Below, one piece after another: positions 32,892 to 58,012 of a stretch of 64,000 nucleotides of DNA. The notes under the pieces were generated by a model. The model did no database searches and had not been told where the DNA came from. It saw only the letters and a program-made list of their open reading frames with translations. A program made the position numbers and the translations under genes. The stretch lies in the NCBI GenBank assembly GCA_964615665.1, contig CAZTQL010000001.1, positions 7,977 to 71,976 of the forward strand, read 5' to 3'. The first letter of the stretch is position 1. Every line of letters begins with the position of its first letter. This DNA comes from an uncultured Woeseiaceae bacterium. Its GTDB lineage: Bacteria > Pseudomonadota > Gammaproteobacteria > Steroidobacterales > Woeseiaceae.

Positions 32892-33108
32892 AGCCCTACA
32901 TCCTCAATCAAGAATAGCGGCCAGAGCGCTTCTACCGCGCCCGCATCCGCACACAGCAGCCAATTGTACAAGGTCTCGAGGGGTGAAACCTAGTCACACA
33001 CTCTTATCGGAAAGCGCGTATGTAACTCTGGGTTTTTTCCGGTATAACTGGGCCCCGGTAACGAACCTGCGGCTGCCGTCCAGCCGCCAATTAACGCAGG
33101 AATGCACG

Positions 33109-34089
33109 ATGGCTCAAGATACGACCCGACCGATGGATCCGGTAGCGGAGGATTTCGCCGGCGAATCGTTGTCGAAAGCCTTGAAGCGTTCTTTCCACGC
33201 GACCCGCCCAAAATTCTTCCCGGCCTCTGTTTTGCCCGTTCTGGCCGGGACCGCCTGGGGTGTCATGGTCACGGGCCGCATCGATATTCTCGTTTTTTTG
33301 CTGGCGCTGCTGGCAACCGTCTGTGTGCATGCCGCGAGTAATGTCCTGAATGACGTCGGTGATGAAATCATCGGCACCGACCGGCGTAATGACAAGCGGA
33401 TTTATCCCTATACGGGCGGCTCGCGGTTCATTCAGACCGGCATCCTGTCGCAGTCGCGGATGGCACGCCTCGGCACGGCACTGCTTGTTGTCGCATCGCT
33501 GGCGGGCATCGCCCTGTTCGTCCAAAAAGGTCCGGTCGTATTGCTATTCGGTCTCGCCGGTATCGCGCTTGCCGTGTTGTATTCCCTTGGACCGGTAAAA
33601 TTAAGCGCGCTGGGTCTTGGTGAGATGTCTATTGTTGTCGCCTTCGGCGTTTTGCCGGTCAGTGGCGCAGCGTGGCTGCAGGGCGCGACTATCGACACCG
33701 CGCTGCTGTTATTTTCGTTGCCGGTCGGCATCTGGGTATCCGCCATTCTCCTGATCAACGAGGTACCGGATATAGAAGCTGACGGTGCTTGCGGCAAGAA
33801 CACGTTGCCGGTGCGGATGGGCTTGGCCAAGACGGCGAATCTGTACTTATTTATGCATATTGCCGCGGCGGCCATCGTCGTCTGGTTGGCAATACGAGGG
33901 TTCTTGCCGATGTTCACGCCGGTCGTGCCGATCCTGTTATTGGTCCTGGCCTGGCGCGCGTCGGCGGGTATTCGTGTCGGCGTTGAGAATCGCGAGTCCA
34001 TGACTCAGGCGATCGAATCGACACTAGCCATTCAAACGGTGGGCTGCCTTTGGCTCGTCGGTTGTTCCCTTTTTGCCTTGTGGTGGTAA
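33109..34089 (+). CDS. menA: 1,4-dihydroxy-2-naphthoate polyprenyltransferase (menaquinone biosynthesis)
   Basis: ATG at 33109. Three stretches parallel E. coli MenA motifs as I recall them: NVLNDVGDEIIGTD (NLANDYGDAVKGSD), GLGEMSIVVAFG (GLGDISVLVFFG) and DIEADGACGKNTLPVRMG (DINSDRENGKNTLVVRLG). The upstream 122 codons of the ORF overlap dcp and were rejected. Confidence 0.8.
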   Translation: MAQDTTRPMDPVAEDFAGESLSKALKRSFHATRPKFFPASVLPVLAGTAWGVMVTGRIDILVFLLALLATVCVHAASNVLNDVGDEIIGTDRRNDKRIYPYTGGSRFIQTGILSQSRMARLGTALLVVASLAGIALFVQKGPVVLLFGLAGIALAVLYSLGPVKLSALGLGEMSIVVAFGVLPVSGAAWLQGATIDTALLLFSLPVGIWVSAILLINEVPDIEADGACGKNTLPVRMGLAKTANLYLFMHIAAAAIVVWLAIRGFLPMFTPVVPILLLVLAWRASAGIRVGVENRESMTQAIESTLAIQTVGCLWLVGCSLFALWW

Positions 34090-41606: not shown

Positions 41607-42362
41607 CTAGCTACTCTTGGCCAGAAAACGGGCACCCAGCGTACGTCGCCTGAGGTAGGCATAAACTTCCAGGAGCGGTAGTTCCTTCGGGCAAACGTCG
41701 GCGCAGGCCATCATGCCGAGACACCCAAACACGCCCTGCTCGCCGGCAACCACATCAAACCACTCGGCATCGGAACGCTGATCTCTCGGGTCCATCATGA
41801 AACGTGCAACCCGGTTCATGCCGGCGCCGGCCAGGAATTCGTCGTCAAGGTTCGCGACGCCGCAGGAGGCGACGCAGCAGCCACATTCGATGCAGCGGTC
41901 GCCTTCGTAGATCGCCTCGGCAATGTCGTCGCTCATGCGCTCCTCGGTCGCCTCAGGATCGAATGGCAGCTGTTCATGAATCCAGGCTTCGGTGCGCTCG
42001 GCCATCTCACGGAACCAGGTCCCGGTATCGACGGACAGGTCACCGATCAGCTTGAACGCCGGTAGCGGATACAGCTGGATGTTCTCCGGCAGGTCCGAGG
42101 TCAGCGTGCGGCACGCCAGCGCCGGCCGACCGTTCACCATCATGCCGCAAGATCCGCAAATGGCCGAGCGGCAGGCGAAGTCGAACTGCAACCCCGGGTC
42201 CAGCGTTTCACGGATCTTGCTGAGCGCGATATACAGCGACATGGACGGTGTTTCGTCGATCTCGAAAATGTCCGTGTGCGGTTCGGAATTTTCGTCTTCG
42301 GGGTTGTACCGAAAAATCTCGAACTTCAGTCGACGCGACGCTGTGCTGTGTTCCTGGGTCAT
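41607..42362 (-). CDS. sdhB: succinate dehydrogenase/fumarate reductase iron-sulfur subunit
   Basis: Three Fe-S cluster motifs: CRSAICGSCGMMVNG, CIECGCCVASC and CADVCP. Confidence 0.92.
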   Translation of the reverse strand: MTQEHSTASRRLKFEIFRYNPEDENSEPHTDIFEIDETPSMSLYIALSKIRETLDPGLQFDFACRSAICGSCGMMVNGRPALACRTLTSDLPENIQLYPLPAFKLIGDLSVDTGTWFREMAERTEAWIHEQLPFDPEATEERMSDDIAEAIYEGDRCIECGCCVASCGVANLDDEFLAGAGMNRVARFMMDPRDQRSDAEWFDVVAGEQGVFGCLGMMACADVCPKELPLLEVYAYLRRRTLGARFLAKSS

Positions 42363-42387
42363 TCCCTAAATCCTTTATTGCTGTCCC

Positions 42388-44340
42388 TTACTGCGAATAC
42401 GCTTGCCAGGCACCGCGTTTGAGTCGACTACCCATTTCTTCGCTGCTCGGCAGGCGACCATGCTGCGTCTGTTCGTGCACCACCGTCTCGTTGTAACTAT
42501 CGATCGACTGCTGCATTTCGATGCGCTCGTCGCTGCCGTAACCACGATGCCCCGGCGGCAGATCGATGAGACCGGTTGGCTCGTAGCTGAACGACGGTTC
42601 GCTTTCGTCCATGGCCCAACGGACCAGCGTGCGATTCAGCCACTCTTCGTCGTTTCGCAGCGGAAAGTCGCTGCGAAAATGTGCGCCCCGACTCTCTGTT
42701 CGAGCCCGCGCACCCATCGCAACGGTCATCGCCAATCGCAACATGCCTTTCAGGCGCAACGCAAAACCGAGCTCCGGATTCACTCCGGGATCCTTGCAAC
42801 GGAGCGCAGCGTTGTCGCAATCATCGAGCAAATGACCGATCTCGGCCACGGCTTCATTCAGTTCGTCGCCCGTTCGAAAGATCCCGACCTTGCCCATCAT
42901 GATTTCGCCGAGCGCGTCACGAATCTCGTACACGTTGCGGCCGCTGCCGCCGCCGCTGCGCGCCAACCAGTTCGCCGCCCGATCTTCAGCCGCTTTCAGT
43001 GCGTCAAACGCGATACCGGTATCGGCACGGAGTGACACCCCTGCGGCATGCTCAGCCACACGTCGGCCGACGATCCGCCCTGATACGAGTGTTTCAGCCA
43101 GGCTGTTGCCACCCAGCCGGTTGAAGCCGTGCATATCCCAGCAGGCCGCTTCGCCAACGGCGAACAGCCCGGCGAGCCCGTAAGCTTCGCCATCTTTATT
43201 CACGCGAATGCCGCCCATCGAATAATGCTGTGTCGGGCGTACCGGAATGAGTGCCTTGGCCGGGTTCAGTCCCGCGAAGTCACGGCAAATGTCCCAGACT
43301 TCCAGCAGCTTGGTACGCAGGTGTTTTTCACCCAGGTGGCGGATATCAAGCCACAGGTGCGGGCCATACGGCGAATCCGCGCCGTTGCCGTCACGCATCG
43401 TCTGCTGCATATGCCGCGACACGACGTCACGACTGGCGAGTTCCTGCTTGGCGGGCTCTTTCTCCACCATGAATCGATGCATGTTCTTGTCGAGCAGATA
43501 ACCGCCGTCACCGCGACAACCTTCGGTAACCAGGATGCCGCTCGGCGAAAGCGTGGTGGGATGGAACTGTACGGCTTCCATGTTGCCCATTGGCACAACG
43601 CCAGTATCAAGCGCAATCGACGCACCGGTACCTTCATTGATTGTTGCGTTGCTCGTGTACTGCCCGTAAATGCGCCCGTAGCCACCTGTCGCAATCACCG
43701 TGGCTTTGGCCAGCACAGCGAAGTGCTTGCCGGTGCGCAGGCAGCGCACCACGGCGCCGAGGCAGCGGCCGCCGTCGTGAATCAGCGCCACAGCTTCCGT
43801 GCGGTCGCGTACCGTGATACCGAGACGAACCACCTCGCTGTCAACGGCATAGAGTGCGGCGTGCCCCGTGCCTGCAGCCGCGTAACACGCGCGCCATTTG
43901 GCCGTGCCGCCAAAGTCTCGCTGCCCGATCAGCCCATCGTTCTCGAGGGCCTCATCGATCTCGACATGCTCGCCCTTGATAAAATACTGGTTCTTGCCGC
44001 CCTGCACGCGGCTCCAGGGCACGCCGAAATGAGCGAGCTCGCGCACTGCGATCGGCGCCTCGTCGGCGAAGATATTCGCGACTTCCTGGTCCGCACCCCA
44101 GTCCGAACCGCGAACGGTATCGAGGAAGTGCACCGTGGGATCATCACCTTCGGCCTTGGCGCAATTGCCGAGCGATGCCTGCATACCGCCCTGAGCAGCA
44201 CAGCTGTGGCTGCGTCGCGGTGGCACCAGGGACAGGATCAATGCTTCGTGTCCGGCGGCCGCCGCTTCGATGGCACAGCGCTCGCCGGCAAGACCCCCGC
44301 CGATGACCAGAACGTCGGTAGTAACCAGGGGACCCGTCAT
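42388..44340 (-). CDS. sdhA: succinate dehydrogenase/fumarate reductase flavoprotein subunit
   Basis: 650 aa. The FAD-binding N-terminus is DVLVIGGGLAGERCA. The covalent-FAD His context RSHSCAAQGGM is present, along with a HPT...GCRGDGG catalytic region. It is a long-form FrdA, as in type-B enzymes. Confidence 0.93.
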   Translation of the reverse strand: MTGPLVTTDVLVIGGGLAGERCAIEAAAAGHEALILSLVPPRRSHSCAAQGGMQASLGNCAKAEGDDPTVHFLDTVRGSDWGADQEVANIFADEAPIAVRELAHFGVPWSRVQGGKNQYFIKGEHVEIDEALENDGLIGQRDFGGTAKWRACYAAAGTGHAALYAVDSEVVRLGITVRDRTEAVALIHDGGRCLGAVVRCLRTGKHFAVLAKATVIATGGYGRIYGQYTSNATINEGTGASIALDTGVVPMGNMEAVQFHPTTLSPSGILVTEGCRGDGGYLLDKNMHRFMVEKEPAKQELASRDVVSRHMQQTMRDGNGADSPYGPHLWLDIRHLGEKHLRTKLLEVWDICRDFAGLNPAKALIPVRPTQHYSMGGIRVNKDGEAYGLAGLFAVGEAACWDMHGFNRLGGNSLAETLVSGRIVGRRVAEHAAGVSLRADTGIAFDALKAAEDRAANWLARSGGGSGRNVYEIRDALGEIMMGKVGIFRTGDELNEAVAEIGHLLDDCDNAALRCKDPGVNPELGFALRLKGMLRLAMTVAMGARARTESRGAHFRSDFPLRNDEEWLNRTLVRWAMDESEPSFSYEPTGLIDLPPGHRGYGSDERIEMQQSIDSYNETVVHEQTQHGRLPSSEEMGSRLKRGAWQAYSQ

Positions 44341-45119
44341 GACGCACCGCCTTCGAGCAAGAATGCCAGCGGCGGATCCATCCAGCCTGCCAGCACGATC
44401 AGCGTGACTCCGCCGAGCACGAGAACCAGCCAGAAAATGACCTGCTCAATGCGATGCATGGTCTGGCGCGACAACCAAAGGTCGGCGCCCCATTTGATCG
44501 CCAGCCGGTACAGGCCGACGCTTGCATGAAACTCGACACACAACAGCAGCACAGCGTACGGCAGCCAGAGGCCGGCGCTGACTCTTGCCGTTGATGTCGA
44601 TGACTCGATGCCGGCAATATCACCATACAGCGGCGTGAATATATCCATGCCCAGCAACACCAGGTGAAAGCTGCCAAGTACGAGCATGATCATTCCGGTG
44701 CGCACCTGCCAAATCCACAACAGCGACTCAACATGCGGCCGGAACGGCGAGTACTCGGTTCGAGTCGCTACCTTCTCGCGGCCGGACTGACTAAGCCCTT
44801 TGGCAAGCTGCAGAATCTGTTTGCGTTGGCGTAACTGCGACGGGATCTTGCGTGCAGCAAACACCGCATGTACCAGGAACAACGTAAAGATAGCAAACAC
44901 GGTCGGCTGGGCGATGTAGTAGTCCTCCAGCATCGTCGCCATCCAGTCGAAGCCACGCTCACCGGTCAGGATGGAGCCAACCAGGACAACGTGTCCCCAC
45001 ATGAACAGCGCCAGCAGTAAGCCACTACCGCCGCTGACTACCTCATAGGCCAGTTCGCGACGCGCGGCCGTCGTCGCAGTGGAGTGTGCATTTCGAACCG
45101 ACGATGCCTTGGTGTTCAT
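44337..45119 (-). CDS. sdhC: type-B single-subunit diheme cytochrome b membrane anchor of SQR/QFR
   Basis: The ATG at 45119 abuts the upstream stop at 45122. About 260 aa with five TM helices and four candidate heme-ligand His (WGHVV, LVHAV, SFHLV, EFHAS). The layout resembles the Wolinella/Bacillus/Geobacter FrdC/SdhC class. Confidence 0.8.
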   Translation of the reverse strand: MNTKASSVRNAHSTATTAARRELAYEVVSGGSGLLLALFMWGHVVLVGSILTGERGFDWMATMLEDYYIAQPTVFAIFTLFLVHAVFAARKIPSQLRQRKQILQLAKGLSQSGREKVATRTEYSPFRPHVESLLWIWQVRTGMIMLVLGSFHLVLLGMDIFTPLYGDIAGIESSTSTARVSAGLWLPYAVLLLCVEFHASVGLYRLAIKWGADLWLSRQTMHRIEQVIFWLVLVLGGVTLIVLAGWMDPPLAFLLEGGAS

Positions 45120-45121
45120 CT

Positions 45122-46525
45122 CTAGGGATTCAACTGTGTCAGGATTTCTGGATTCTCCTCGCGCTCGGCGAGGATCGAGTGGCAGGTATCGCAATCACGG
45201 GAAATCGTCTCTCTTTCCTTGGTCCGCAGTCGCTTGCCGTGGCAGCGATAACAACCGTCGGATCGTTCATGACCGATATGTTCGGGATAGGTGTTCCACC
45301 ACACTTTCATTTGCGGGAAGACGTTGACCGAATAAATATCTCCGAGTGTCACGGCGGCGGCCGATATATCGTCGGCCCTTGCGTTTGCAACGTCGGGGTA
45401 ATTTTCCTGGTAATACTGATTCAGCTCGGCCGTGATGACCTCGCGAGCTTCCTCGTGCGAGGCATATTCGGCATCGATAATTCGCAACGCTTCACGTCTC
45501 ACATAAGGCAGCGTTCTGTCGATCAGCCCATCACGAATTGCGACATCAATTTCTGAATCCGGCGCCTGATAATTATGGCTGGGCCGATTGTGACAATCGA
45601 CACAATCCATTTGCCGCCACACGCCGCCGTCTTCCGGAGCCTTTCTATCAGCATACAGCTTGACCTCGCCCTCTTCGTTGGCGTATTCGACTTCGTAAAT
45701 CTCTTCTCGCGTGTCATCTGATCGGTAGCGAATGCTGACGCCAGGATCGACATGCCAGTGTATTCCCGACGACTTCTTACCGGCCTCGCCGCCGACTCTC
45801 AACAACAGAGCCGTCGTCAACTCCGTGTTGGCCTCGTCTTCTTCGTAATGTTTCTTGATCTTCAGCTTGTCGCCCACAAAGCGAGTTGGCCAATGGCACT
45901 GCTCGCAAGTATCGCGCGCCGGGCGCAAATCATGCAGTGGTGTTGGGATCGGTCGCGGATAGAGGTCGAACGCCACTGACACCAGCTGCCAGGCACCATC
46001 CAGTTTCGACTTCACAAACCAGTCCGCACCAGGACCGATATGGCAATCGGCACACAACAACCGCGAGTGCGACGAACGTTGGAACGCCGTGTGTTCAGGT
46101 TCCATCACAGAATGGCAGGCAAGCCCACAAAACTCGACCGACTCCATTACCTCGACGCCTTTGTAGGTTGCACCGGCCACGATGACTACGTTGACCATCG
46201 TTGCACCGAGCAGTATCAGCATCCAGTTACGTGTCTTCGGCTTGTTGAGGTCGAAGATCGGCAACAACGGCATCGACTCGCCACCTGGCGACCGGCGAAT
46301 CCTGCGCCGGTATAACAACGTTCCCAGAGGAATCAGTATCAGCCCGACGACAAAGATCATCGGCAATATCAGAAACGTGATAATGCCGAGATAGGGCCCG
46401 CCCTCGAAGCCAACCTGTGTCATAAAAATCAGGCTGAAGATAAGCACCAGGGCCGCGATTGCAAGCCCGGTGCCGAACAGACTCAGACCGTTCCGGGTAA
46501 TCGACGCTAGAAAACTCTTAAACAC
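45122..46525 (-). CDS. membrane-anchored NapC/NirT-type multiheme cytochrome c (ImcH-like), 5 CXXCH plus 1 CX3CH
   Basis: 467 aa with three N-terminal TM helices. The heme sites are CGLACH (CX3CH, verified on DNA at 46112-46129), CADCH, CEQCH, CVDCH, CYRCH and CDTCH. Confidence 0.8.
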   Translation of the reverse strand: MFKSFLASITRNGLSLFGTGLAIAALVLIFSLIFMTQVGFEGGPYLGIITFLILPMIFVVGLILIPLGTLLYRRRIRRSPGGESMPLLPIFDLNKPKTRNWMLILLGATMVNVVIVAGATYKGVEVMESVEFCGLACHSVMEPEHTAFQRSSHSRLLCADCHIGPGADWFVKSKLDGAWQLVSVAFDLYPRPIPTPLHDLRPARDTCEQCHWPTRFVGDKLKIKKHYEEDEANTELTTALLLRVGGEAGKKSSGIHWHVDPGVSIRYRSDDTREEIYEVEYANEEGEVKLYADRKAPEDGGVWRQMDCVDCHNRPSHNYQAPDSEIDVAIRDGLIDRTLPYVRREALRIIDAEYASHEEAREVITAELNQYYQENYPDVANARADDISAAAVTLGDIYSVNVFPQMKVWWNTYPEHIGHERSDGCYRCHGKRLRTKERETISRDCDTCHSILAEREENPEILTQLNP

Positions 46526-46556
46526 AAATTACCCTCTGATGAGTACCTGCCCGTTT

Positions 46557-48428
46557 TCAGGGCCGGTTTTCCTGTTGCTCGGTTGGTTCATCATAAACGA
46601 CCTCGCCGCGTTCTTCTGCCCTTGAGAACGGCGGTTTACCGGTCCGCCAGGTCGTATCCATCGGATACACCGCTGGATCGAAGATGACAAAGTAGAAGTG
46701 CCAGATGAGGATAGCGAGGGTAGCCAGGATCGCCTCCAGGAAATGCAGCACGGTGGCAGCCTCGGGCACCCAGCCCGGCAGCCAGGTCAGCGTGAAGTTC
46801 TCGAACCACAACACCAGCCCCGTGAGTGCCGTGACGAAGGTACCCCATAGCGCGGCCCAGTATTCGACCTTCTCCACATAGCCGACGCGCACGGGCGCGG
46901 GTGGCTCGGGACGGCGCCCGAGGTTGTAGCCTATCCGGTGGATAAACTCCTTGAAATCGACAAGACCAGGAAGGAACGCCGCGATCTGGTGCCGAGCACT
47001 GGCACTGATTGCAAGATGGCCGAAGTGGAAGAAGCAGGCGCCCATCAGACCGACGGCCGCTATGCGATGAATCAGGCCGCGGAATTCGCCACTGCCAATC
47101 TGCACGAGCTCTGCCCACCAGCTCTCGGGGTATTTCAAAGCAAAACCGCTGACTACCAGTACCATAAAGCTCACAGCCGCTATAACGTGCGCGATCCGAA
47201 ATGGCTTCGACATGCGTTCTTTGATCATGCAGTTTTCCGGGGGCCTGCGCAGGCGCGGCGCCGGATCACGTGCCTTCTTGTTCAGATCGAGCAGGTTGTG
47301 CAACAGCATGCCGATGACCGTGACCCAGATCAGCGGGATATAAATGAGCCGGATCCAGTACGCGACAATGTTGGGTGGCTGGTCGGCCAACATGTGCACG
47401 GGGCCGAGCTCGAAACGGCTGCCCGCTCCCAGGTGACATTGGCCGCAGGTCTCCGCCAGGTTGTCCGGATGAATGTGAGAGCCGGGGTCGCTGGAAGGCA
47501 GGATGTAATGTACACCGTGACAGCTCGCACAATTCGCGACCTTTTGCACGCCTCCGCGTGCAGCAAGCCCATGGAAGCTGTCCTCATAGGAAGGGACCTG
47601 CTCAGCATCCAGTCCGTATTTCTCGCCCAGGCGCAAATCCGAATGGCAGGGGCCACAGACACGGATCGGAATGTTGGTCGCCGATACCGGTGAGCCCTCC
47701 GCGGCCACGGCCAGAATTCGATGCTCGCCATGACAATCCGTGCAGACGGGCGAGTCATCGATGCCGTTGGCGGCGGCCAGGCCATGAATACTCTGCTCGA
47801 ACTTGGCAGTGATCTCAGCATGACAGGTACCGCAGGTGCCTGGCACATTTGAACGGTGGATCGAAGAAGCAGGGTCTGCGGCCGGAAGCGGCGAGTGAGC
47901 GGAATGGCAATCGCTGCAGCCCGCGCCATGCTCGCCATTGATCACTGCGGCGGCATGCACACTGGCGGTATAGGCTTCTATCGGGCGAATCGTGCGAACG
48001 CCCGCGGGTGCCGGCTGCCCGGAGCCATGGCAGGCCCCGCAGGTCTCTCCCTGACGGCTGGCGTGTACGGGAGAGGATCGCTCAGTCGCTAGCGTCATGG
48101 CATGTATTTCGCCATGACAACTCGAACATGAGGGAAGCTCCAGGTCAGACATGCGTTGCCGGCCCTCCGATCCATGCACGCTCACACTCTGTTCGTCGAC
48201 AGCCTCCGCATGACAACCCGCACAGCCGACCGGATCGAGCCCGCGCCTGTGCCGACGTTCCCCGCCAACATGGCAATCAAGGCATTCCGTGGCGCCGTGC
48301 GGGGTGCTCTCAAAGAGCGCCACATCGACTTCGTGGCAATCGTTGCAGGGATGTTCATCCTCCTCGGCGTCGACCGTCTGAAACACGAACAGCAGGCAGG
48401 GAACCAGGATGGTTAGCAGTTTGCGCAT
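46557..48428 (-). CDS. fusion protein: periplasmic 11-heme cytochrome c plus C-terminal membrane diheme cytochrome b domain (CbcL-like)
   Basis: 623 aa with a signal peptide. The 11 CXXCH sites are CNDCH, CLDCH, CAGCH, CSSCH, CGACH, CSDCH, CGTCH, CTDCH, CGPCH, CASCH and CGQCH. About 5 TM helices follow, with conserved His (IAHVI, LIHRIAAV, LHFLEA...IWHFYF). Confidence 0.85.
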   Translation of the reverse strand: MRKLLTILVPCLLFVFQTVDAEEDEHPCNDCHEVDVALFESTPHGATECLDCHVGGERRHRRGLDPVGCAGCHAEAVDEQSVSVHGSEGRQRMSDLELPSCSSCHGEIHAMTLATERSSPVHASRQGETCGACHGSGQPAPAGVRTIRPIEAYTASVHAAAVINGEHGAGCSDCHSAHSPLPAADPASSIHRSNVPGTCGTCHAEITAKFEQSIHGLAAANGIDDSPVCTDCHGEHRILAVAAEGSPVSATNIPIRVCGPCHSDLRLGEKYGLDAEQVPSYEDSFHGLAARGGVQKVANCASCHGVHYILPSSDPGSHIHPDNLAETCGQCHLGAGSRFELGPVHMLADQPPNIVAYWIRLIYIPLIWVTVIGMLLHNLLDLNKKARDPAPRLRRPPENCMIKERMSKPFRIAHVIAAVSFMVLVVSGFALKYPESWWAELVQIGSGEFRGLIHRIAAVGLMGACFFHFGHLAISASARHQIAAFLPGLVDFKEFIHRIGYNLGRRPEPPAPVRVGYVEKVEYWAALWGTFVTALTGLVLWFENFTLTWLPGWVPEAATVLHFLEAILATLAILIWHFYFVIFDPAVYPMDTTWRTGKPPFSRAEERGEVVYDEPTEQQENRP

Positions 48429-48462: not shown

Positions 48463-51318
48463 CTAACGGTAACCGAACAGCATCGTGTAAATGATCAGGC
48501 TCAGCAGAACCAGCCCGAAGGCGAGTGCCGCGAAGCCGAATATCCTCACGCCGCGTTCTTTACCCTCTGGGAAGGCTTTCACGAGATGATTCTCCAGCTC
48601 ACCGGATTTCACCATCGCTTCGTACTCGCCAGGCTTATCGTATTTCAGCTCTTCCACGGATATCCGCCCACTGAATATCACGGGATCCATGGGGAACTTG
48701 TCGGGCCGGAAGTGTGTGTTGAAGAAATGAATCGTAAATATGAAACCGACCGCGAGCAGCGCCTCGTCACTGTGGATGATCGTCGCCACGTTGACGGCCC
48801 AGCCAGGAACGATGTAGGTGAACGTTTCGGGGAACCACAGGACCAACCCTGTCGTACCAATTATGGCCACACCCCAGGCAACCGCGAAGTAGTCGAACTT
48901 CTCCCAATACGTGTAACGACCGTAACTGGGGCGGGGGCCCATGCCGAAGAACCACTTGATGGACTGGATGAACTCCTTGAGGTCGCGGCCGTTGAAAATG
49001 ATGGAATCCGGTCCGGTAATGATCTGCAACCAGGTGTGCCCCGTGGTCTTCTTGTGACGAAGCACATCGATCACGTGCGCAATGAAGACGCCGATCAACA
49101 CAACCGCACCGACGCGATGCAGGAATCCCATACTATCGAACCCGCCGAGGACCCTGGAGGTCAACTGTGCCCAGAACATATACGAAAATTTCAATGCCAT
49201 GCCCGTCAACGCCAGCGTGAAGAAGCTGAGCATCATTACGACATGCATGGTGCGCTGGTAGCGACTGAATCGACGGTAGAATTTCTGGTCTTTGTTGCGG
49301 GCAATAGCCTTATGCGCCTTCCACTCTTCGCGGTTCAGCAATAGGCGTACAACCCAGGCCAGCGTATGCAGCAGCGCAAACGACAGCGTACCGACCAGCA
49401 ACGCGGTCATGCCCCAGAAGGACCAGAACAACCACGGGTAGGTCGCGCGATCGTGGTGCGTCGCGTGTGTCAGGTAGCCGGCAAAACGCCGGTGCGATCC
49501 TTCGTGACACTGGCCACAAGTCTCAACCACGTTGTCGCGGCTAAGCCGCGAGGCAGGGTCGGCGGGACTGAGAATATCGTGCGTGCCATGACAGTCGTAA
49601 CACTTGGCAACGCCCTCTGCGCCGAGGCGCGAGACCTTGCCGTGAAACGTGTCAAAGTAGGTCTCAGTCTGGTCTTCGTGACAGCGGCCGCACTGCTCCA
49701 TCATCTCTGTGCGGAATCCCACATCTTCGGTGCGAGAGATCGTGTGCGAAGCGTGACAGTCCTCGCAGGTGGGATACTCTTTGTCGGGATCCGGGTCGTC
49801 AGACCAGTGGACGCTGGCGCGGAACGTCTCCTCTACCCCGTGGTGGCAGGTACCGCAGGTGCCAGCGATATTTTGTGGACTCACGGGGGACTCCGGATCC
49901 TCCGGAGGACGCTCGGAGTGTGCGCCATGACAATCGGCGCAGGTTGCCGACACGATGAGGCCGGCATTCAAGGCTCGACCATGAACGCTGTCTTCATAGC
50001 TGCCCACGATATCGTCCACTTTGGCGTGGATCCGGGTCGCGGCCTGTTCACCGACGCGATGACACTCTCCGCATAGCGCGGGGACGTTACGCGGATAGGT
50101 AGGCGACACGGGAAGTTCACTGCCGAGTGTGGCGTGTTTGGCATGGCAGTCCCGGCAGATCGGTGCATCCGGATCGTCTTGCGCATGCAGGGTTCCGTGC
50201 GCACTGCCCTGGTACTCGGTGACCTGTTCGGCATGGCAGATGCTGCAATCCACGGGTGACTGCACAGTTTCGCAGGCGCGTTCCTGGGCGACCGTCACAT
50301 CCGTGTGACATTGAGCGCAGGCGGTGTCTGCATGCATCGAGCCCTCGTAGGCCTGCTCGTCAACGTACAGACTGACGGTTTCTCCATCGCGAGTCATCGC
50401 CAGATCCGTCTGGCTATGGCAGGTCAGGCAATCCTTGTCGGCCAGACCGTCAGGGTAGAAAACGGCGCGAATCTTGTGTGGGGCATGGCAGTCGACGCAG
50501 GCCGGAATCTTGCCCGGATTTTCCTCCCACAGATTGCCTTCGATCACCTTGCGATGAACGCGCTCAATCTGCCCATGGCAGGTAGTGCACATCGTAGCGA
50601 CATTGTCCGGGTGGATGCTCGACCGAGGATCGGTATGCGGAAGGATGTCATGAGACGTGTGACAGGAAGTACAGACGGCTGTGACGGTGAGGCCTTGCTG
50701 GAACAGGCCCTCGCCGTGAATACTCATCGAGTAATTCTCGATGATGTTGTCCTGGGAGATCTCGTGAGTTCGCGATACGGGAGCGCCCTCGCGGTGACAA
50801 CTGCCGCAGAGCAGCGGCACGTTCATTATCGCTGTCGACGCGTCCGGATCCGAGGCTGACAGGACTTCGTGCTTGCCGTGGCAGTCGGCACAATTCGGTG
50901 CCATCGGATCGCCGTTTTTTGCGGCCGTGCCATGCAGGCTGCCGCCATGCGCTCTCGCCTGGGACTTGTGGCAATCACCACAATCGACAGGCTCCAGGTC
51001 CTCAGCGTGCCGCCGACGTTTTGACCCGGCAAGGTCCTTGTGACAATCCACACAGGCAGTACCGGCGTGCACGGAAGTGGCGCCCGCTTTCGCGGCAACA
51101 TAGACCGAAATCTCCTCATCTCCGCGGTAACCGGTAAGCTCCGGGTCGTCATGACACTTGAGGCATCTGCTGTCCTCCTGCGCCAATGCGGGCGTTCCTG
51201 CGAACCAGAGAATCGCGGTCGCCGCGACGAACCAAAAGGTTCGGCGACTACTTGGGAGGAGTCGGTGGCCGGGCGAGCGGCCACGCGAAAGACGCGCGAG
51301 GAGAGCGACCTTTGTCAT
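48463..51318 (-). CDS. fusion protein: periplasmic 19-heme cytochrome c plus C-terminal membrane diheme cytochrome b domain (CbcL-like, expanded)
   Basis: 951 aa with a signal peptide ending ALAQE and 19 CXXCH motifs. About 6 TM helices follow, with His positions matching the paralog (TMHVV, FLHRVGAV, IIHSDEA...TIHFF). Confidence 0.85.
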   Translation of the reverse strand: MTKVALLARLSRGRSPGHRLLPSSRRTFWFVAATAILWFAGTPALAQEDSRCLKCHDDPELTGYRGDEEISVYVAAKAGATSVHAGTACVDCHKDLAGSKRRRHAEDLEPVDCGDCHKSQARAHGGSLHGTAAKNGDPMAPNCADCHGKHEVLSASDPDASTAIMNVPLLCGSCHREGAPVSRTHEISQDNIIENYSMSIHGEGLFQQGLTVTAVCTSCHTSHDILPHTDPRSSIHPDNVATMCTTCHGQIERVHRKVIEGNLWEENPGKIPACVDCHAPHKIRAVFYPDGLADKDCLTCHSQTDLAMTRDGETVSLYVDEQAYEGSMHADTACAQCHTDVTVAQERACETVQSPVDCSICHAEQVTEYQGSAHGTLHAQDDPDAPICRDCHAKHATLGSELPVSPTYPRNVPALCGECHRVGEQAATRIHAKVDDIVGSYEDSVHGRALNAGLIVSATCADCHGAHSERPPEDPESPVSPQNIAGTCGTCHHGVEETFRASVHWSDDPDPDKEYPTCEDCHASHTISRTEDVGFRTEMMEQCGRCHEDQTETYFDTFHGKVSRLGAEGVAKCYDCHGTHDILSPADPASRLSRDNVVETCGQCHEGSHRRFAGYLTHATHHDRATYPWLFWSFWGMTALLVGTLSFALLHTLAWVVRLLLNREEWKAHKAIARNKDQKFYRRFSRYQRTMHVVMMLSFFTLALTGMALKFSYMFWAQLTSRVLGGFDSMGFLHRVGAVVLIGVFIAHVIDVLRHKKTTGHTWLQIITGPDSIIFNGRDLKEFIQSIKWFFGMGPRPSYGRYTYWEKFDYFAVAWGVAIIGTTGLVLWFPETFTYIVPGWAVNVATIIHSDEALLAVGFIFTIHFFNTHFRPDKFPMDPVIFSGRISVEELKYDKPGEYEAMVKSGELENHLVKAFPEGKERGVRIFGFAALAFGLVLLSLIIYTMLFGYR

Positions 51319-52670: not shown

Positions 52671-54926
52671 ATGAGCCGTCCATTCGACCCCCGATCTAAA
52701 ATTTTGAGCCTTCTATGCGCATCCGCATTACTGTTCGCATGCAGTGGAGATACGGGCCCGACGGGCCCGGCCGGAGCGTCTGGTTCAACCGGTTCGACCG
52801 GACCCGGCGGATCCACCGGCTCGACAGGCGGCACCGTGTCCGCTTTGGTACCGATCCAGTCGGTGGAAAAAATCAACGTGTCGTACGACAGCGTAGCGAT
52901 TGAGGCCGGCGGCCAGGCTCCCGACATCTTAATGCGCCTGACGGACGATTTCGGCTTCGGGATCACCGGTCTGCCGGCGGCAAGCGTGGGCTTTACGTTG
53001 GCACAGCTTTCGCCAGGCCAGGACGGTGGTTCGAGCGAATGGCAGTCATACGTGACGCGCAACAGCGCCGGAATTGAGAACGCGCAGGCAACAACGGAAT
53101 CGGCCGGCGCAGGCAGCTTCACGGATAACGGCGACGGCACCTATACCTATGTCTTCGCACAGAACCTGCCCGACTATGCGGGCGGCCCCACATTCGACGC
53201 CAACAAGATTCACCGTCTCGGCGTGGAGATTCGCACCGATCGCGGCGGCTTCCTGCCCGAGAACATCCCGGCGAACAACGCACCGTTTGATTTTGTGCCG
53301 GCCGGCGGCAGCCCCGCCGATCTGGAGCAGCGACTTATTGTCAACAACGACGCCTGCAATGCCTGTCATGACAACCTCGAACTGCACGGTGAAGCGCGCT
53401 TCGATGTCGAGTATTGCGTGACCTGCCATAACCCCTACTCCGTCGATGGCGATACCGCCGACGAGCCGTGGGGCGGCTCGGTTGATATGACAGTGATGAT
53501 CCACAAGATTCACTTTGGCGTGAATCTGACCAACGGTTACCGAGTTGTTGGGTACGGTGGCTTTGAGCACGACTACTCCGACGTCGAATTTCCGCAGGAC
53601 GTACGCAACTGCACAACCTGCCACCAGGAATCGAACGACGCGGTACCGCAAGCCAGCAACTGGCGCACCGTGCAGAACCGCGCCGCCTGTGGCACCTGCC
53701 ATGACGACATCGACTGGGAAGGCGGCACGCATCCGGGTGGCTTTGTCTTCACAGACGACCTGCAATGTCAGGATTGTCACGATGACACCGCTCCGGCGAC
53801 TGAGGCTAAACTCCGGGTCTCCGAAGCGCATGCCCAGCCCAATCGCGAGGCTAGCGAACGATTCGCTTACAACATCCTGGATATCAGTGAGACCGACGTC
53901 GGAGACTTCCCGGTGATCCAGTACTCGGTCACCGACCCAACCAACGGCGACGCGCCTTACGATCTTCTAGGCGATCCGGAATGGACCGTTTGTGGCCCGG
54001 CCCGACTGGCTGTAGGCATTGCCTGGGATACGGCCGACTATCACAATAACGATAGCGGCAACGCCCCGGGCCTGGGCGTATCGATGAACGCGATCAACTG
54101 TTTCGGTGGTTCTCCTGCCGACCTCGGTGCCGGTGTGTTTAGCGTCACTTCACCGGTTGCCGTACCTGCCACCGCCGGTGGGTCGCTCGCGGTAACCATT
54201 GACGGGCATCCCGCGGTCGATATCGGCGGCACGCTCGAGCGGATCGCCGTGACCAATGCCGTGGCCTATGCGGCAATAACGGACGCCACAGCCAAGCCAC
54301 GCCGCAACGCGGTCGCCATTGAAAAGTGCGACGACTGCCATAGTCAGCTGGCGATACATGGCAATAACCGCACGGACAACATCGAGGTTTGTGTGACCTG
54401 TCATGCGCCGAATGCCACCGATGTCAACCAACGTGGCGGCGACTGCGAAACTGACCTTGGTCTCGATGATTCGTCGATTGACATGAAGTACATGATCCAT
54501 GCGATCCACGCGTCTGGGACCATTGAAGTTCCTTACGAGGTTTGCGGATTCGGCAACTCAACCCACGTGTATGACTTTGTTTACCCGGGCAAGCTGAACA
54601 ATTGCGAAGGCTGCCATGTCCCGGGCGGCTATTACCCGGTTGATCCGAGCAATGTACTTGGCACGACCGTCGATACTGGCCCGGACAAGACCACGCCAAT
54701 GGATGACAAGGTCGTATCGCCGAACTCGTCTGTCTGCTCGTCCTGTCATACGAGCACGCTTGCGGCGAATCACATGACCCAGAACGGTGGTGACTTCGAT
54801 GCGAGAAAATCCGCGGACAGCACGCTGATATCGTCCGGCGCAGAGACCTGCGAACTCTGCCACGGAGAAGGCCGTCAGTCGGATGTCAAGGTAGTGCACG
54901 GTATCGAAGCGTTCGAGTTCAACTAA
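52671..54926 (+). CDS. mtrC: OmcA/MtrC-family outer-surface decaheme cytochrome c lipoprotein
   Basis: 751 aa with lipobox LLFACSG and 10 CXXCH motifs in a 5+5 arrangement split by a heme-free region of about 180 aa. The overall layout (heme-free N-terminal domain, pentaheme, heme-free, pentaheme) matches MtrC. It is followed by mtrA and mtrB. Confidence 0.88.
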   Translation: MSRPFDPRSKILSLLCASALLFACSGDTGPTGPAGASGSTGSTGPGGSTGSTGGTVSALVPIQSVEKINVSYDSVAIEAGGQAPDILMRLTDDFGFGITGLPAASVGFTLAQLSPGQDGGSSEWQSYVTRNSAGIENAQATTESAGAGSFTDNGDGTYTYVFAQNLPDYAGGPTFDANKIHRLGVEIRTDRGGFLPENIPANNAPFDFVPAGGSPADLEQRLIVNNDACNACHDNLELHGEARFDVEYCVTCHNPYSVDGDTADEPWGGSVDMTVMIHKIHFGVNLTNGYRVVGYGGFEHDYSDVEFPQDVRNCTTCHQESNDAVPQASNWRTVQNRAACGTCHDDIDWEGGTHPGGFVFTDDLQCQDCHDDTAPATEAKLRVSEAHAQPNREASERFAYNILDISETDVGDFPVIQYSVTDPTNGDAPYDLLGDPEWTVCGPARLAVGIAWDTADYHNNDSGNAPGLGVSMNAINCFGGSPADLGAGVFSVTSPVAVPATAGGSLAVTIDGHPAVDIGGTLERIAVTNAVAYAAITDATAKPRRNAVAIEKCDDCHSQLAIHGNNRTDNIEVCVTCHAPNATDVNQRGGDCETDLGLDDSSIDMKYMIHAIHASGTIEVPYEVCGFGNSTHVYDFVYPGKLNNCEGCHVPGGYYPVDPSNVLGTTVDTGPDKTTPMDDKVVSPNSSVCSSCHTSTLAANHMTQNGGDFDARKSADSTLISSGAETCELCHGEGRQSDVKVVHGIEAFEFN

Positions 54927-55879
54927 TGGCGACATTAGTTACTCGTCGCGGCTGGCTTAGCCTGCCCGTGCTGATGATGGCTCTCGTGGCCATCGCAGCG
55001 CCGGCCACGTCGTTGGCCCAGGATGACGAAGCGCCAAGCTATAGTAAGGAAGGCGCGGACACCTGCTTCAAATGCCATGACGATCAAGTCGTGTTGGGCG
55101 TATTTCGCACCAAGCATGCGGTACCGACGGATCCAAACTCCCCGTTTGGGCACGGCCAGTTGCAGTGCGAAGCGTGCCACGGTCCTGGCGGCGACCACTC
55201 CGGGCGCGTGCGCCGCGGTAAGGAACGGCCGGTTATGGTGCGCTTTGGCTCCGATAGCGGCACGCCGGTGCCCGAGCAGAACTCATACTGCCTGGACTGT
55301 CATTTGCCCGATGCCGGGTTCGCCTGGCACGGGAGCGCTCACGACGACAACACGGTCGCCTGCGCCGACTGCCATGACAGCCACGTCGAACGTGACCCGG
55401 TCCTCGCAACAACGACTCAGGCCGAGGTTTGCTTCGACTGCCATCAGCAGCAACGCACCGCGTCGATGAAACCGTACGCGCACCCACTGCGTGACGGCAA
55501 AATGACATGCACCGGCTGCCACAACACGCATGGCGATACGACCGAGCTGCTGCTGGCCCGCACAACCACCAATCAGACCTGCTTCGACTGTCACGCAGAA
55601 AAACGCGGGCCCTACCTCTGGGAACATGCGCCTGCTGCCGAGGACTGCGGCAACTGTCACGATCCGCACGGCTCCAACCATCCGGGCATGCTGTCGAAGC
55701 GCGCTCCGCTACTCTGCCAGAGCTGCCATTCACAGGACGGCCATCCGAGCCTGCCGCAGGATGAACGTGGCCTGCCATCCGGCACGGCCTCTCGATTCCT
55801 GCTGGGTCAGAGCTGTCTCAACTGCCATGAACAGGTGCACGGATCGAACCATCCGTCCGGCACCAAGCTAATGCGCTAG
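54926..55879 (+). CDS. mtrA: MtrA/DmsE-family periplasmic decaheme cytochrome c
   Basis: 317 aa with a signal peptide and 10 CXXCH motifs at high density (CFKCH, CEACH, CLDCH, CADCH, CFDCH, CTGCH, CFDCH, CGNCH, CQSCH, CLNCH). The ATG overlaps the mtrC stop (TAATG). Confidence 0.92.
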   Translation: MATLVTRRGWLSLPVLMMALVAIAAPATSLAQDDEAPSYSKEGADTCFKCHDDQVVLGVFRTKHAVPTDPNSPFGHGQLQCEACHGPGGDHSGRVRRGKERPVMVRFGSDSGTPVPEQNSYCLDCHLPDAGFAWHGSAHDDNTVACADCHDSHVERDPVLATTTQAEVCFDCHQQQRTASMKPYAHPLRDGKMTCTGCHNTHGDTTELLLARTTTNQTCFDCHAEKRGPYLWEHAPAAEDCGNCHDPHGSNHPGMLSKRAPLLCQSCHSQDGHPSLPQDERGLPSGTASRFLLGQSCLNCHEQVHGSNHPSGTKLMR

Positions 55880-55891
55880 GAGCGTCGTGCG

Positions 55892-58012
55892 ATGTTGAAT
55901 AGAACGAACCGATTCACTCCTGCTCTCTTCGCGCTGTTGCCGCTTCTGGCGCCGGGCATTGGCATCGCCGAAGTCGACACCAGCGACTGGAAGTGTGAGT
56001 CGTGCCCGTTTGATGACGGCTACCGGGCCAATGTCAGCGCGGGCGCTACCTACGTCGGCGAGGATGGCGCTATTCGCTTCGGCAGCGCCACCGGGTATGA
56101 CGACAAGGGCGGCTACGCCAATGTCGACGGCCAGGGACGCTACGTCAGCGACGGCTACCGGCTCGACTGGACCCTCGAAGATCTTGGCCTCGACTCGCGC
56201 GTCTTCACTCTGGACGCCGGTCGTCAAGGTAGCTTCGGCGTGCACGTGGGTTATCGAGAGCTGCCCTACTGGCAATTCGATTCGACGCGGACTGTTTTCA
56301 ATTCCTCCACGTCCGACACGCTCACATTACCCTCCGACTGGGTGCCGGCAGGCCTGACCTCGGACATGACGCGGCTGTCATCGTCGCTGCGTCGACAAAA
56401 CATTGGCAGCGACCGGCAGATCATGGACATTGGGGGGGACTGGCAGCCGGCTGAGGCCTTCCGACTGTACGCCGACTTCCAACGCCAGAATCGGGATGGC
56501 ATCGACATTACCGCCGGCTCGAGCTACACGCAGGCGTCTCTGCTGCCGCGCTGGATCGATTACGAGACCGACCAGATCGACGCTGGCATCCGGTATGGCA
56601 CAGCTCGCTCAAGTCTGACGCTGGCGTATTTCGGCTCGTCTTTTACGAACCAGAACCCATCGATCACCTGGGACACGCCGTTTACCTCCGGCCCCGGCAC
56701 TGAGCAGCTGCGGGCAGCAACAGCGCCGGAAAACGAGTTCCAGCAGATCTCGCTGTCGGGTGCGTACCGCGCAACGATGTGGGACACCGTCCTTGCCTTC
56801 TCACTGGCGTCCGGCACCGGCAAACAAAACGAGACTTTCCTGCCTTACACGATCAACCCGAACGTGGGCGCGGGCGCGCTGCCGAAGAACTCTCTCGACG
56901 GCAAAGTCGACACGAGCAACTATGCGCTGACCGTAACGTCACGACCGTTTCCGAAGGCCCGGGTAAAACTCTCTTACCGCTATGACGACCGCGACAACAA
57001 GACGCCGCAGTCCGAATGGAACCGTGTCGTCGTCGACGTTTTCCAGGTCACAGATACCGAGCAGAATATACCTTACAGTTTCGAACGCTCGGCATTCTCG
57101 CTGAGTGGCGAGCTGTTGGTCTGGAAAGGCATTCGCGTTTCTGGTGGCTGGGATCGCAAAGAACTGAATCGCGATTATCAGGAGGTAGCGGAACAGACGA
57201 CTGACGCCGGCTGGGGACAGGCGAGCTGGAAACCGCTGGCGTGGCTCGACCTGCGCATTAAAGGCGGCGCGTCAGAACGTGACATTGATCGCTATAACGA
57301 AACACTTGCCGTCAGCTTCGGCCAGAACCCGCTGATGCGGAAATACAATCTGGCGTATCGCTACCGCAGCTACGGAGAGTTGAACGCGTCCATCACACCG
57401 GTTGAATCGCCGATCTCCCTCAGCACAACGGTTCTGTATGCCGACGATCGCTACAACCGATCCCAGCTGGGCATGACTGACAGCGAAGAGGTACGAGCAA
57501 CGGCTGACTTGAACTGGGCCGTCACTGACAACACCAGTTTTTTCCTGATGTACGGCTATGAAGACATCGATGCGCTGCAGCTTGGTTCCGAGCAAAACGG
57601 CTACTGGGATTGGAGCGCAAAACATGAAGACAGCTTCGACCATGTGGGCGGTGGTTTTCGCTGGCGCCAGGCCGAAGGCAAGCTCGATCTGCGCGTCGAC
57701 TTCAACCGCGGCAGTGGCAAGACGACGGTCGATCTCTTTAGTGTGAGTGGTGGAGAAAGCCGCCTGCCAGACCTGGAATCGACGCTCGACTCAGCGCGCG
57801 TCGAAGCGCGCTATCGCTGGAGCGAGCGTGTCGACGCTACGTTCGACTTGCGCTACGAGAGCTTTGAGGTTGACGACTACGCGCTGGTATCGCCCTCGAC
57901 AGTATCAACCGTGCTGACTCTGGGCGCCGAGCCCTACGACTACAAGGTATGGGCGGTGGGTTTCGGGATACGCTACAGCTTTGGCGGCGGTGAGATTACG
58001 TTAGCCGAATAG
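55892..58012 (+). CDS. mtrB: MtrB/PioB-family outer-membrane beta-barrel porin
   Basis: 706 aa with a signal peptide and the N-terminal CxxC motif (DWKCESCPF) known from Shewanella MtrB. The rest has an alternating beta-strand pattern rich in Y/W/D/R, with a C-terminal aromatic residue four positions from the end (...YSFGGGEITLAE). Confidence 0.88.
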   Translation: MLNRTNRFTPALFALLPLLAPGIGIAEVDTSDWKCESCPFDDGYRANVSAGATYVGEDGAIRFGSATGYDDKGGYANVDGQGRYVSDGYRLDWTLEDLGLDSRVFTLDAGRQGSFGVHVGYRELPYWQFDSTRTVFNSSTSDTLTLPSDWVPAGLTSDMTRLSSSLRRQNIGSDRQIMDIGGDWQPAEAFRLYADFQRQNRDGIDITAGSSYTQASLLPRWIDYETDQIDAGIRYGTARSSLTLAYFGSSFTNQNPSITWDTPFTSGPGTEQLRAATAPENEFQQISLSGAYRATMWDTVLAFSLASGTGKQNETFLPYTINPNVGAGALPKNSLDGKVDTSNYALTVTSRPFPKARVKLSYRYDDRDNKTPQSEWNRVVVDVFQVTDTEQNIPYSFERSAFSLSGELLVWKGIRVSGGWDRKELNRDYQEVAEQTTDAGWGQASWKPLAWLDLRIKGGASERDIDRYNETLAVSFGQNPLMRKYNLAYRYRSYGELNASITPVESPISLSTTVLYADDRYNRSQLGMTDSEEVRATADLNWAVTDNTSFFLMYGYEDIDALQLGSEQNGYWDWSAKHEDSFDHVGGGFRWRQAEGKLDLRVDFNRGSGKTTVDLFSVSGGESRLPDLESTLDSARVEARYRWSERVDATFDLRYESFEVDDYALVSPSTVSTVLTLGAEPYDYKVWAVGFGIRYSFGGGEITLAE

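Follow-up and report, generated by a model that had tools for sequence, protein, structure and literature searches.

ImcH oxidizes menaquinol in Geobacter sulfurreducens (bioRxiv 10.1101/2023.05.03.539133, a preprint) and is required for high-potential extracellular acceptors (Levar et al. 2014, PMC4251993, the mBio paper in which it is named ImcH). The G. sulfurreducens protein has the N-terminus MTLRKT, residues E127, H137, K173, Q179, and Y188, and seven heme motifs (bioRxiv 10.1101/2023.05.03.539133), the first of which is given as CXXXCH (CX3CH) in the Fig. 1B legend of Levar et al. 2014 (PMC4251993). A survey of 71 ImcH homologues from 12 phyla reports that nearly all have three transmembrane (TM) helices, the atypical CX3CH, and five to nine CX2CH motifs (Zhong & Shi 2018, PMC6295460, Front Microbiol). 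The imcH-like gene described here lies in the genome of an uncultured Woeseiaceae bacterium, in a window that comprises the whole 64,000-nucleotide (nt) stretch analyzed (contig CAZTQL010000001.1, positions 7,977 to 71,976). Its product is very probably a six-heme, ImcH-family inner-membrane quinol oxidase that carries heme 1 at CX3CH and passes electrons toward MtrCAB. Unless stated otherwise, residue numbers are those of the 467-amino-acid (aa) window protein.

Two other quinol oxidases serve as further points of comparison. CymA of Shewanella oneidensis has an analogous role, feeding electrons from quinol into an MtrCAB conduit, but possesses one TM helix and four hemes. NrfH also has one TM helix and four hemes, harbors a canonical CXXCH-x-M at its first site, and forms a complex with NrfA. 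To our knowledge, NrfH from Desulfovibrio vulgaris (PDB 2J7A, 2VR0) is the only solved NapC/NirT-family structure.

Assignment of the window protein to the ImcH family

The gene and its membrane segments are as follows.

45122..46525, minus strand: imcH-like gene, 467 aa, six heme motifs, GTG start (open reading frame (ORF) list and sequence)
46532..46536, minus strand: GAGGG Shine-Dalgarno sequence, 6 nt 5' of the GTG start (sequence reading)
46415..46489, minus strand: TM helix 1, about residues 13-37 (hydropathy; AlphaFold2 helix 13-37)
46316..46399, minus strand: TM helix 2, about residues 43-70 (hydropathy; AlphaFold2 helix 43-77)
46163..46225, minus strand: TM helix 3, about residues 101-121, counterpart of the single NrfH anchor helix (hydropathy; AlphaFold2 helix 96-127; NrfH alignment from residue 102)

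The ORF is intact by both the ORF list and the sequence. In deposited records the protein is called either "hypothetical protein" or "NapC/NirT family cytochrome c", and it escaped all curated NCBIfam models. Hydropathy reveals three hydrophobic segments (about residues 14-35, 45-70, and 101-121), and the AlphaFold2 model (mean pLDDT 80.5, pTM 0.72) has helices at 13-37, 43-77, and 96-127; both bear out the three N-terminal TM helices, in place of one, that an earlier note on this DNA had read from the sequence. The loop between the second and third segments (residues 71-101) has a net charge of +6, which by the positive-inside rule implies a cytoplasmic N-terminus and a periplasmic heme domain. 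Pfam Cytochrom_NNT (NapC/NirT, PF03264) matches residues 99-177 with 35.6 bits against a cut-off of 24.1.

The Geobacter-type gene used for comparison, L148, was reached stepwise, from a "Deltaproteobacteria" locus to a phylum sample, a family, and finally a genome. No protein starting MTLRKT was present among the 150 best cluster representatives, and one scan of genome contigs returned Bacteroidota, Ignavibacteriota, Acidobacteriota, and similar loci but none from Geobacter. L148 is located at 3.57 Mb in its genome and encodes 507 aa that start with MTLRKT and contain one CX3CH (CGELCH) and six CXXCH motifs. It has E127, H137, K173, Q179, and Y188, matching the published N-terminus, residue numbers, and motif count of recombinant ImcH.

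The window protein is 41% identical to L148 over 453 aa (BLASTP, E 9e-132), and all six of its motifs line up with motifs of L148. L148 is its best match in that genome in a one-way search (E 6.5e-120, the next match being at 4.9e-8), and the window protein is the single match, i.e., the only copy, in its own genome. With three TM helices, one CX3CH, and five CX2CH motifs, it falls inside the published range of the family. By sequence, it is thus an ImcH-family member that can be named ImcH with confidence, and the description in the earlier note as an ImcH-like, three-TM, NapC/NirT-related cytochrome is upheld by the Pfam match, the 41% identity, and the best match to the Geobacter-type protein.

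Both proteins have three N-terminal TM helices, a NapC/NirT-like region, a CX3CH directly after TM3, and the Glu, Lys, Gln, and Tyr pocket residues, and both genes adjoin or co-occur with that of a CbcL-type cytochrome. They differ in that the window protein has six motifs versus seven, the C-terminal ~40 residues and the last CXXCH being absent; in the seven-heme forms, this further CXXCH lies ~40 residues past the sixth motif. The host is also different (a Woeseiaceae gammaproteobacterium), and the gene stands beside mtrCAB and is translationally close to frdC. The tree groups the window protein with a large clade of six-heme sequences and places Geobacter ImcH in a clade with seven or more hemes. 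The window protein is an uncharacterized ImcH of the six-heme clade in a gammaproteobacterial host.

Many ImcH-family proteins have long C-terminal extensions, reaching at least 12 heme motifs and ~600-1170 aa (L095, L098, L102, L105, L107-L109, and L115 in a Desulfobacterota sample, as well as P0158, P0168, P0211, and others), so that fusion of additional multiheme modules to the ImcH core is common.

The best PDB match of the window protein, by sequence and by fold, is NrfH (2j7a_C; Foldseek probability 1.00, target TM-score 0.51). TM3 corresponds to the NrfH anchor helix, the first heme site of both proteins is at the membrane surface, and a conserved Met follows soon after the motif. No ImcH structure was present in the PDB in the sequence and fold searches, which returned only NrfH, weakly, and the residues beyond ~230 (beta-rich and helical parts) had no structural relative there. 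Scores against curated models are far below their cut-offs: 46.5 versus 134.2 for NrfH, 16.6 versus 310.6 for NapC/NirT, and 28.3 versus 455 for TorC. Membership of the NrfH, NapC, TorC, or CymA equivalogs was ruled out by these scores together with the three TM helices and six motifs. Besides the window ImcH, no CymA/NapC-type protein scored above the Pfam cut-off in its own genome.

Conservation of the CX3CH motif

The six heme sites are distributed along the protein as follows.

46112..46129, minus strand: heme site 1, CGLACH (CX3CH), residues 133-138 (codons TGT GGG CTT GCC TGC CAT)
46040..46054, minus strand: heme site 2, CADCH, residue 158 (Cys and His columns invariant in the alignment)
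45893..45907, minus strand: heme site 3, CEQCH, residue 207 (CXXCH in 151/151 rows)
45590..45604, minus strand: heme site 4, CVDCH, residue 308 (CXXCH in 148/151 rows)
45239..45253, minus strand: heme site 5, CYRCH, residue 425 (CXXCH in 138/151 rows)
45179..45193, minus strand: heme site 6, CDTCH, residue 445, the last site; the protein ends 18 residues later, without the seventh heme of Geobacter ImcH

The codons confirm the C-G-L-A-C-H reading at 46129-46112 given earlier, and the five canonical CXXCH motifs said to follow it are found at residues 158, 207, 308, 425, and 445. HMMER aligns FCGLACHSVM with FCT-SCH-IM of NrfH, so that CX3CH occupies the first heme site of the NapC/NirT fold, in agreement with the position that had been proposed for it.

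Two sets of homologues were examined. The close set consists of the 120 closest database clusters (72-97% identity to the window protein), and in each of these (120/120) a single CX3CH is accompanied by exactly five CXXCH motifs. The first motif is CG[LMTQEA][AV]CH. The distant alignment has 151 rows, i.e., the window protein and the 150 best 50%-identity cluster representatives (~34-60% identity). Its aligned site 1 is CX3CH in 145 rows and CXXCH in five, with one row misaligned or truncated. The family signature is F-C-G-x-x-C-H-x-V-M-x-P-E, in which F132, C133, C137, H138, and M141 are each conserved in 150/151 rows, P143 in 151/151, and G134 in 135/151. Furthermore, F-C-G-x-x-C-H-x-[VI]-M is found in 79/79 named-genome loci from other phyla with a parsable gene (Melioribacter, Calditrichota, Bacteroidota, Acidobacteriota, Gemmatimonadota, and others).

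CX3CH is consequently a documented, almost universally conserved hallmark of ImcH and not an anomaly. The earlier note had treated it as a peculiarity of the window protein and had considered that homologues might uniformly show CXXCH, which would have pointed to a 3-nt indel; the motif is instead the first motif of ImcH itself and near-universal in its homologues. Apart from the deviation from CXXCH, nothing suggests that the extra residue stems from a 3-nt error of sequencing or assembly, or from an insertion peculiar to this strain, in what would otherwise be a CXXCH protein. The same spacing recurs in 120 independent homologues from many assemblies as well as across phyla, making the probability of such an origin negligible. 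The flagged motif itself is not new, having been described for ImcH since 2014 and surveyed in 2018. Outside ImcH, two CymA homologues of Rhodoferax ferrireducens have an atypical CX3CH beside the TM domain (Zhong & Shi 2018, PMC6295460).

In the midpoint-rooted FastTree phylogeny, the canonical CXXCH variants occur at six separate places, each amid CX3CH sequences. These scattered positions suggest that CX3CH is ancestral in the ImcH family and that CXXCH arose secondarily several times. The six lineages (P0138, P0165, P0207, P0232, and P0264 among the representatives and L111 in the Desulfobacterota sample) are natural one-residue-deletion variants, usable as ready-made controls.

Occupancy, ligation, and maturation of heme 1

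Three residues in addition to the motif itself enter the question of how heme 1 is held.

46103..46105, minus strand: Met141, 150/151 rows, near the position of the NrfH CXXCHXM methionine (alignments)
46004..46006, minus strand: Lys174 (published ImcH K173), 151/151 rows (alignments; residue named in bioRxiv 10.1101/2023.05.03.539133)
45986..45988, minus strand: Gln180 (published ImcH Q179, proposed distal heme-1 ligand), 141/151 rows (alignments; bioRxiv 10.1101/2023.05.03.539133)

The published pocket residues E127, K173, Q179, and Y188 correspond to E128, K174, Q180, and Y189 in the window protein and are all kept. Met141 lies three residues past the motif His (C-x3-C-H-x-x-M) and is not discussed in the available portion of the preprint.

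When Geobacter ImcH was produced recombinantly in S. oneidensis, 6.6 Fe were measured per protein, versus seven motifs including CX3CH, and electron paramagnetic resonance (EPR) showed a partly high-spin signal assigned to heme 1, which was modelled with His137/Gln179 ligation at the proposed menaquinol site (bioRxiv 10.1101/2023.05.03.539133). The model is AlphaFold-based, with hemes fitted by hand. For the window protein, this iron stoichiometry of a 41%-identical homologue indicates that the CX3CH site very probably binds heme.

It is very improbable that CX3CH binds no heme and represents a vestigial, disulfide, or metal site, leaving a five-heme cytochrome with its quinol site elsewhere. 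The constraint on F132, C133, C137, H138, M141, and P143 is unexpected for a vestigial site. In the alignment, the motif moreover falls on the quinol-site heme of NrfH (heme 1), and the canonical CXXCH found at the same place in six lineages also argues for a heme there. A heme-free site could be read from the non-canonical motif, from the finding that, among the seven Geobacter ImcH hemes, menadiol reduced only about two (bioRxiv 10.1101/2023.05.03.539133), and from the fact that peptide-level mapping of heme attachment was not found in the available portions of the cited ImcH literature; however, 6.6 Fe per ImcH fits seven hemes and not six. The earlier suggestion that the first site binds heme "atypically or not at all" is thus divided: atypical binding remains reasonable in light of the His/Gln ligation and partly high-spin heme 1 proposed in published work, whereas absence of heme is disfavored by the iron content.

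Outside the motifs, exactly five His residues are (nearly) invariant in the alignments (153, 256, 258, 317, and 419). These would allow bis-His ligation of hemes 2-6 and leave none for heme 1, in keeping with a sixth position there that is open or taken by an unusual ligand. Heme 1 of NrfH has the Met of CXXCHXM as its proximal ligand, in place of the motif His (bioRxiv 10.1101/2023.05.03.539133). A heme 1 bound at CX3CH with its iron ligated by Met141, as in NrfH, versus the His138/Gln180 pair of the preprint, is unlikely, though several points favor it: M141 matches the motif His in conservation, no solved structure is closer than NrfH, the published His/Gln assignment stems from the model with hand-fitted hemes, and EPR shows a partly high-spin heme. 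On the other hand, the spacing (H-x-x-M here) departs from the H-x-M of NrfH, conservation is likewise high for Q180 (141/151), and no spectroscopic Met signature is reported in the available portion of the preprint. The question of heme-1 ligation concerns the whole ImcH family and not the window gene in particular. The family-wide counts (signature, scattered CXXCH variants, and five spare His residues) could guide experiments on it.

Non-canonical sites raised the question of extra CcmF-type heme lyases. None is apparent, as each of the 12 same-genus genomes searched, imcH carriers included, has a single CcmF (12/12, with the gene of one genome divided between two contigs). From this single CcmF and the maturation of Geobacter ImcH in a heterologous host, we infer that the general Ccm System I handles site 1. 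In the window's own assembly (84% complete), ccmF (CcmF_C) and resB are not assembled, and there are two CcmC/CcsA-type matches, one of them on a 2.4-kb contig. The ccm operon seems fragmented in this assembly (contigs C97 and C67), a CcmC-like gene being located at the end of the 2.4-kb contig.

Gene neighborhood and proposed electron route

The genes surrounding imcH include the following.

41607..45119, minus strand: frdCAB-type succinate:quinone / quinol:fumarate oxidoreductase (Pfam, NCBIfam)
46557..48428, minus strand: CbcL-like fusion of an 11-heme cytochrome c with cytochrome b, 31 nt upstream of imcH (Pfam, NCBIfam, heme count)
48463..51318, minus strand: long CbcL-type fusion of a 19-heme cytochrome c with cytochrome b (Pfam, NCBIfam, heme count)
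52671..58012, plus strand: mtrC-, mtrA-, and mtrB-like genes, divergent, outer-membrane conduit (Pfam Mtrc-MtrF_II-IV_dom, Paired_CXXCH, MtrB_PioB)

The minus-strand array runs from the 19-heme fusion through the CbcL-like gene and imcH to frdC, frdA, and frdB, where adjacent genes overlap by 4 nt at one extreme and are 34 nt apart at the other. Two nucleotides separate the imcH stop codon (45124-45122) from the downstream frdC start codon, an ATG at 45119. This spacing suggests co-transcription or translational coupling of the quinol oxidase with a type-B succinate/fumarate oxidoreductase. The imcH-frdC link is present in genome G388 and absent in G398. The CbcL-like protein has its best match in the Geobacter-type genome at 283 kb (33% identity, E 7e-54). 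About 6 kb from imcH is the divergent mtrCAB, whose MtrC-like and MtrA-like products have 10 CXXCH motifs each, and the cluster also encodes a class-I diheme cytochrome c (Pfam).

The closest homologues carry source names that point to Woeseiaceae. The order mtrBAC, diheme c, cbcL-like, imcH is also found in two same-genus genomes (L162 and L163), one of which has frdCAB. The distribution of imcH is patchy, with the gene in 5/12 same-genus genomes and 0/8 genomes from other families of the order. In other phyla, a CbcL-like gene lies within 6 kb of imcH in 37/80 loci, and MtrB in 0/80. The 2018 survey found no mtrAB or mtoAB adjacent to imcH (Zhong & Shi 2018, PMC6295460), and a metagenomics paper of 2025 on Woeseiaceae describes mtrCAB with no mention of ImcH. 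Given these three observations, the adjacency of imcH and mtrCAB is the one mildly new point.

In the proposed mechanism, the three N-terminal helices would anchor the protein with its N-terminus in the cytoplasm and its heme domain in the periplasm, and heme 1 would be attached at C-G-x-x-C-H directly after TM3, on the membrane surface. Together with the conserved Lys174, Gln180, and Tyr189, heme 1 would form a (mena)quinol-oxidizing pocket like that at NrfH heme 1. The five bis-His hemes would then relay the electrons to periplasmic carriers, from which they would reach the neighboring MtrCAB-type outer-membrane conduit, while protons would be released to the periplasm. The window itself contributes the architecture, the ImcH homology, the conservation of CX3CH and the pocket, the NrfH-like fold of the TM3/first-heme region, and the conserved neighborhood. 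Heme occupancy, menaquinol oxidation, electroneutral proton release, and the proposed His/Gln ligation are taken from the literature on Geobacter ImcH. The same chemistry may be expected in this organism, with MtrCAB as the presumed downstream partner. Of the earlier proposal of a "candidate high-potential-branch quinol oxidase", the quinol oxidase part stands on ImcH homology; the "high-potential branch" is a Geobacter mutant phenotype that is not transferable from sequence alone.

Several points weigh against assigning the protein as a six-heme ImcH-type quinol oxidase that feeds MtrCAB. Its function rests on homology, in an organism known from its genome, and occupancy of site 1 is drawn from the total iron of a 41%-identical protein and not from peptide mapping. 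That protein, L148, was equated with GSU3259-type ImcH by its N-terminus and residue numbering rather than by accession. The Foldseek match to NrfH has a weak E-value (0.048) and covers 109 columns only. The missing seventh heme is one of two solvent-exposed hemes in the Geobacter model, and partner docking may differ as a result. Lastly, the genome is 84% complete and lacks an assembled ccmF, which leaves room for an extra lyase in this strain.

The direction of electron flow could also be reversed, with the protein reducing quinone as part of an Fe(II)- or Mn(II)-oxidizing (Mto-like) pathway. Mtr/Mto conduits and CbcL/MtoC-type proteins are bidirectional (Zhong & Shi 2018, PMC6295460), and the cluster has its class-I diheme cytochrome c; yet, up to 2018, ImcH homologues were found only in Fe(III) reducers (Zhong & Shi 2018, PMC6295460), the cluster encodes an MtrC-type extracellular decaheme protein, and the Woeseiaceae literature takes mtrCAB as a sign of dissimilatory iron reduction. 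Quinone reduction is, for these reasons, improbable.

For quinol oxidation by the window ImcH, a broader proposal is that the six-heme protein gates electron entry into a Shewanella-type MtrCAB, combining a Geobacter-type inner module with an Mtr outer module, co-transcribed with a type-B frd, in marine-sediment Woeseiaceae. This proposal is tentative, with a likelihood put somewhat short of even. The main value of the analysis lies in annotation, namely that the protein can carry the name ImcH. The naming supports the view that benthic Woeseiaceae, a very abundant group in marine sediments, possess every step of a path that links their quinone pool to extracellular Fe/Mn oxides; published work on them covers mtrCAB only.

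A MenA homologue is encoded at 32743-34089 (120 bits versus the TIGR00751 cut-off of 102). Its presence implies a probable naphthoquinone pool in this gammaproteobacterium, which fits ImcH and FrdCAB. The MenA ORF as listed is 448 aa long and the match begins at residue ~145; the true start is probably further downstream.

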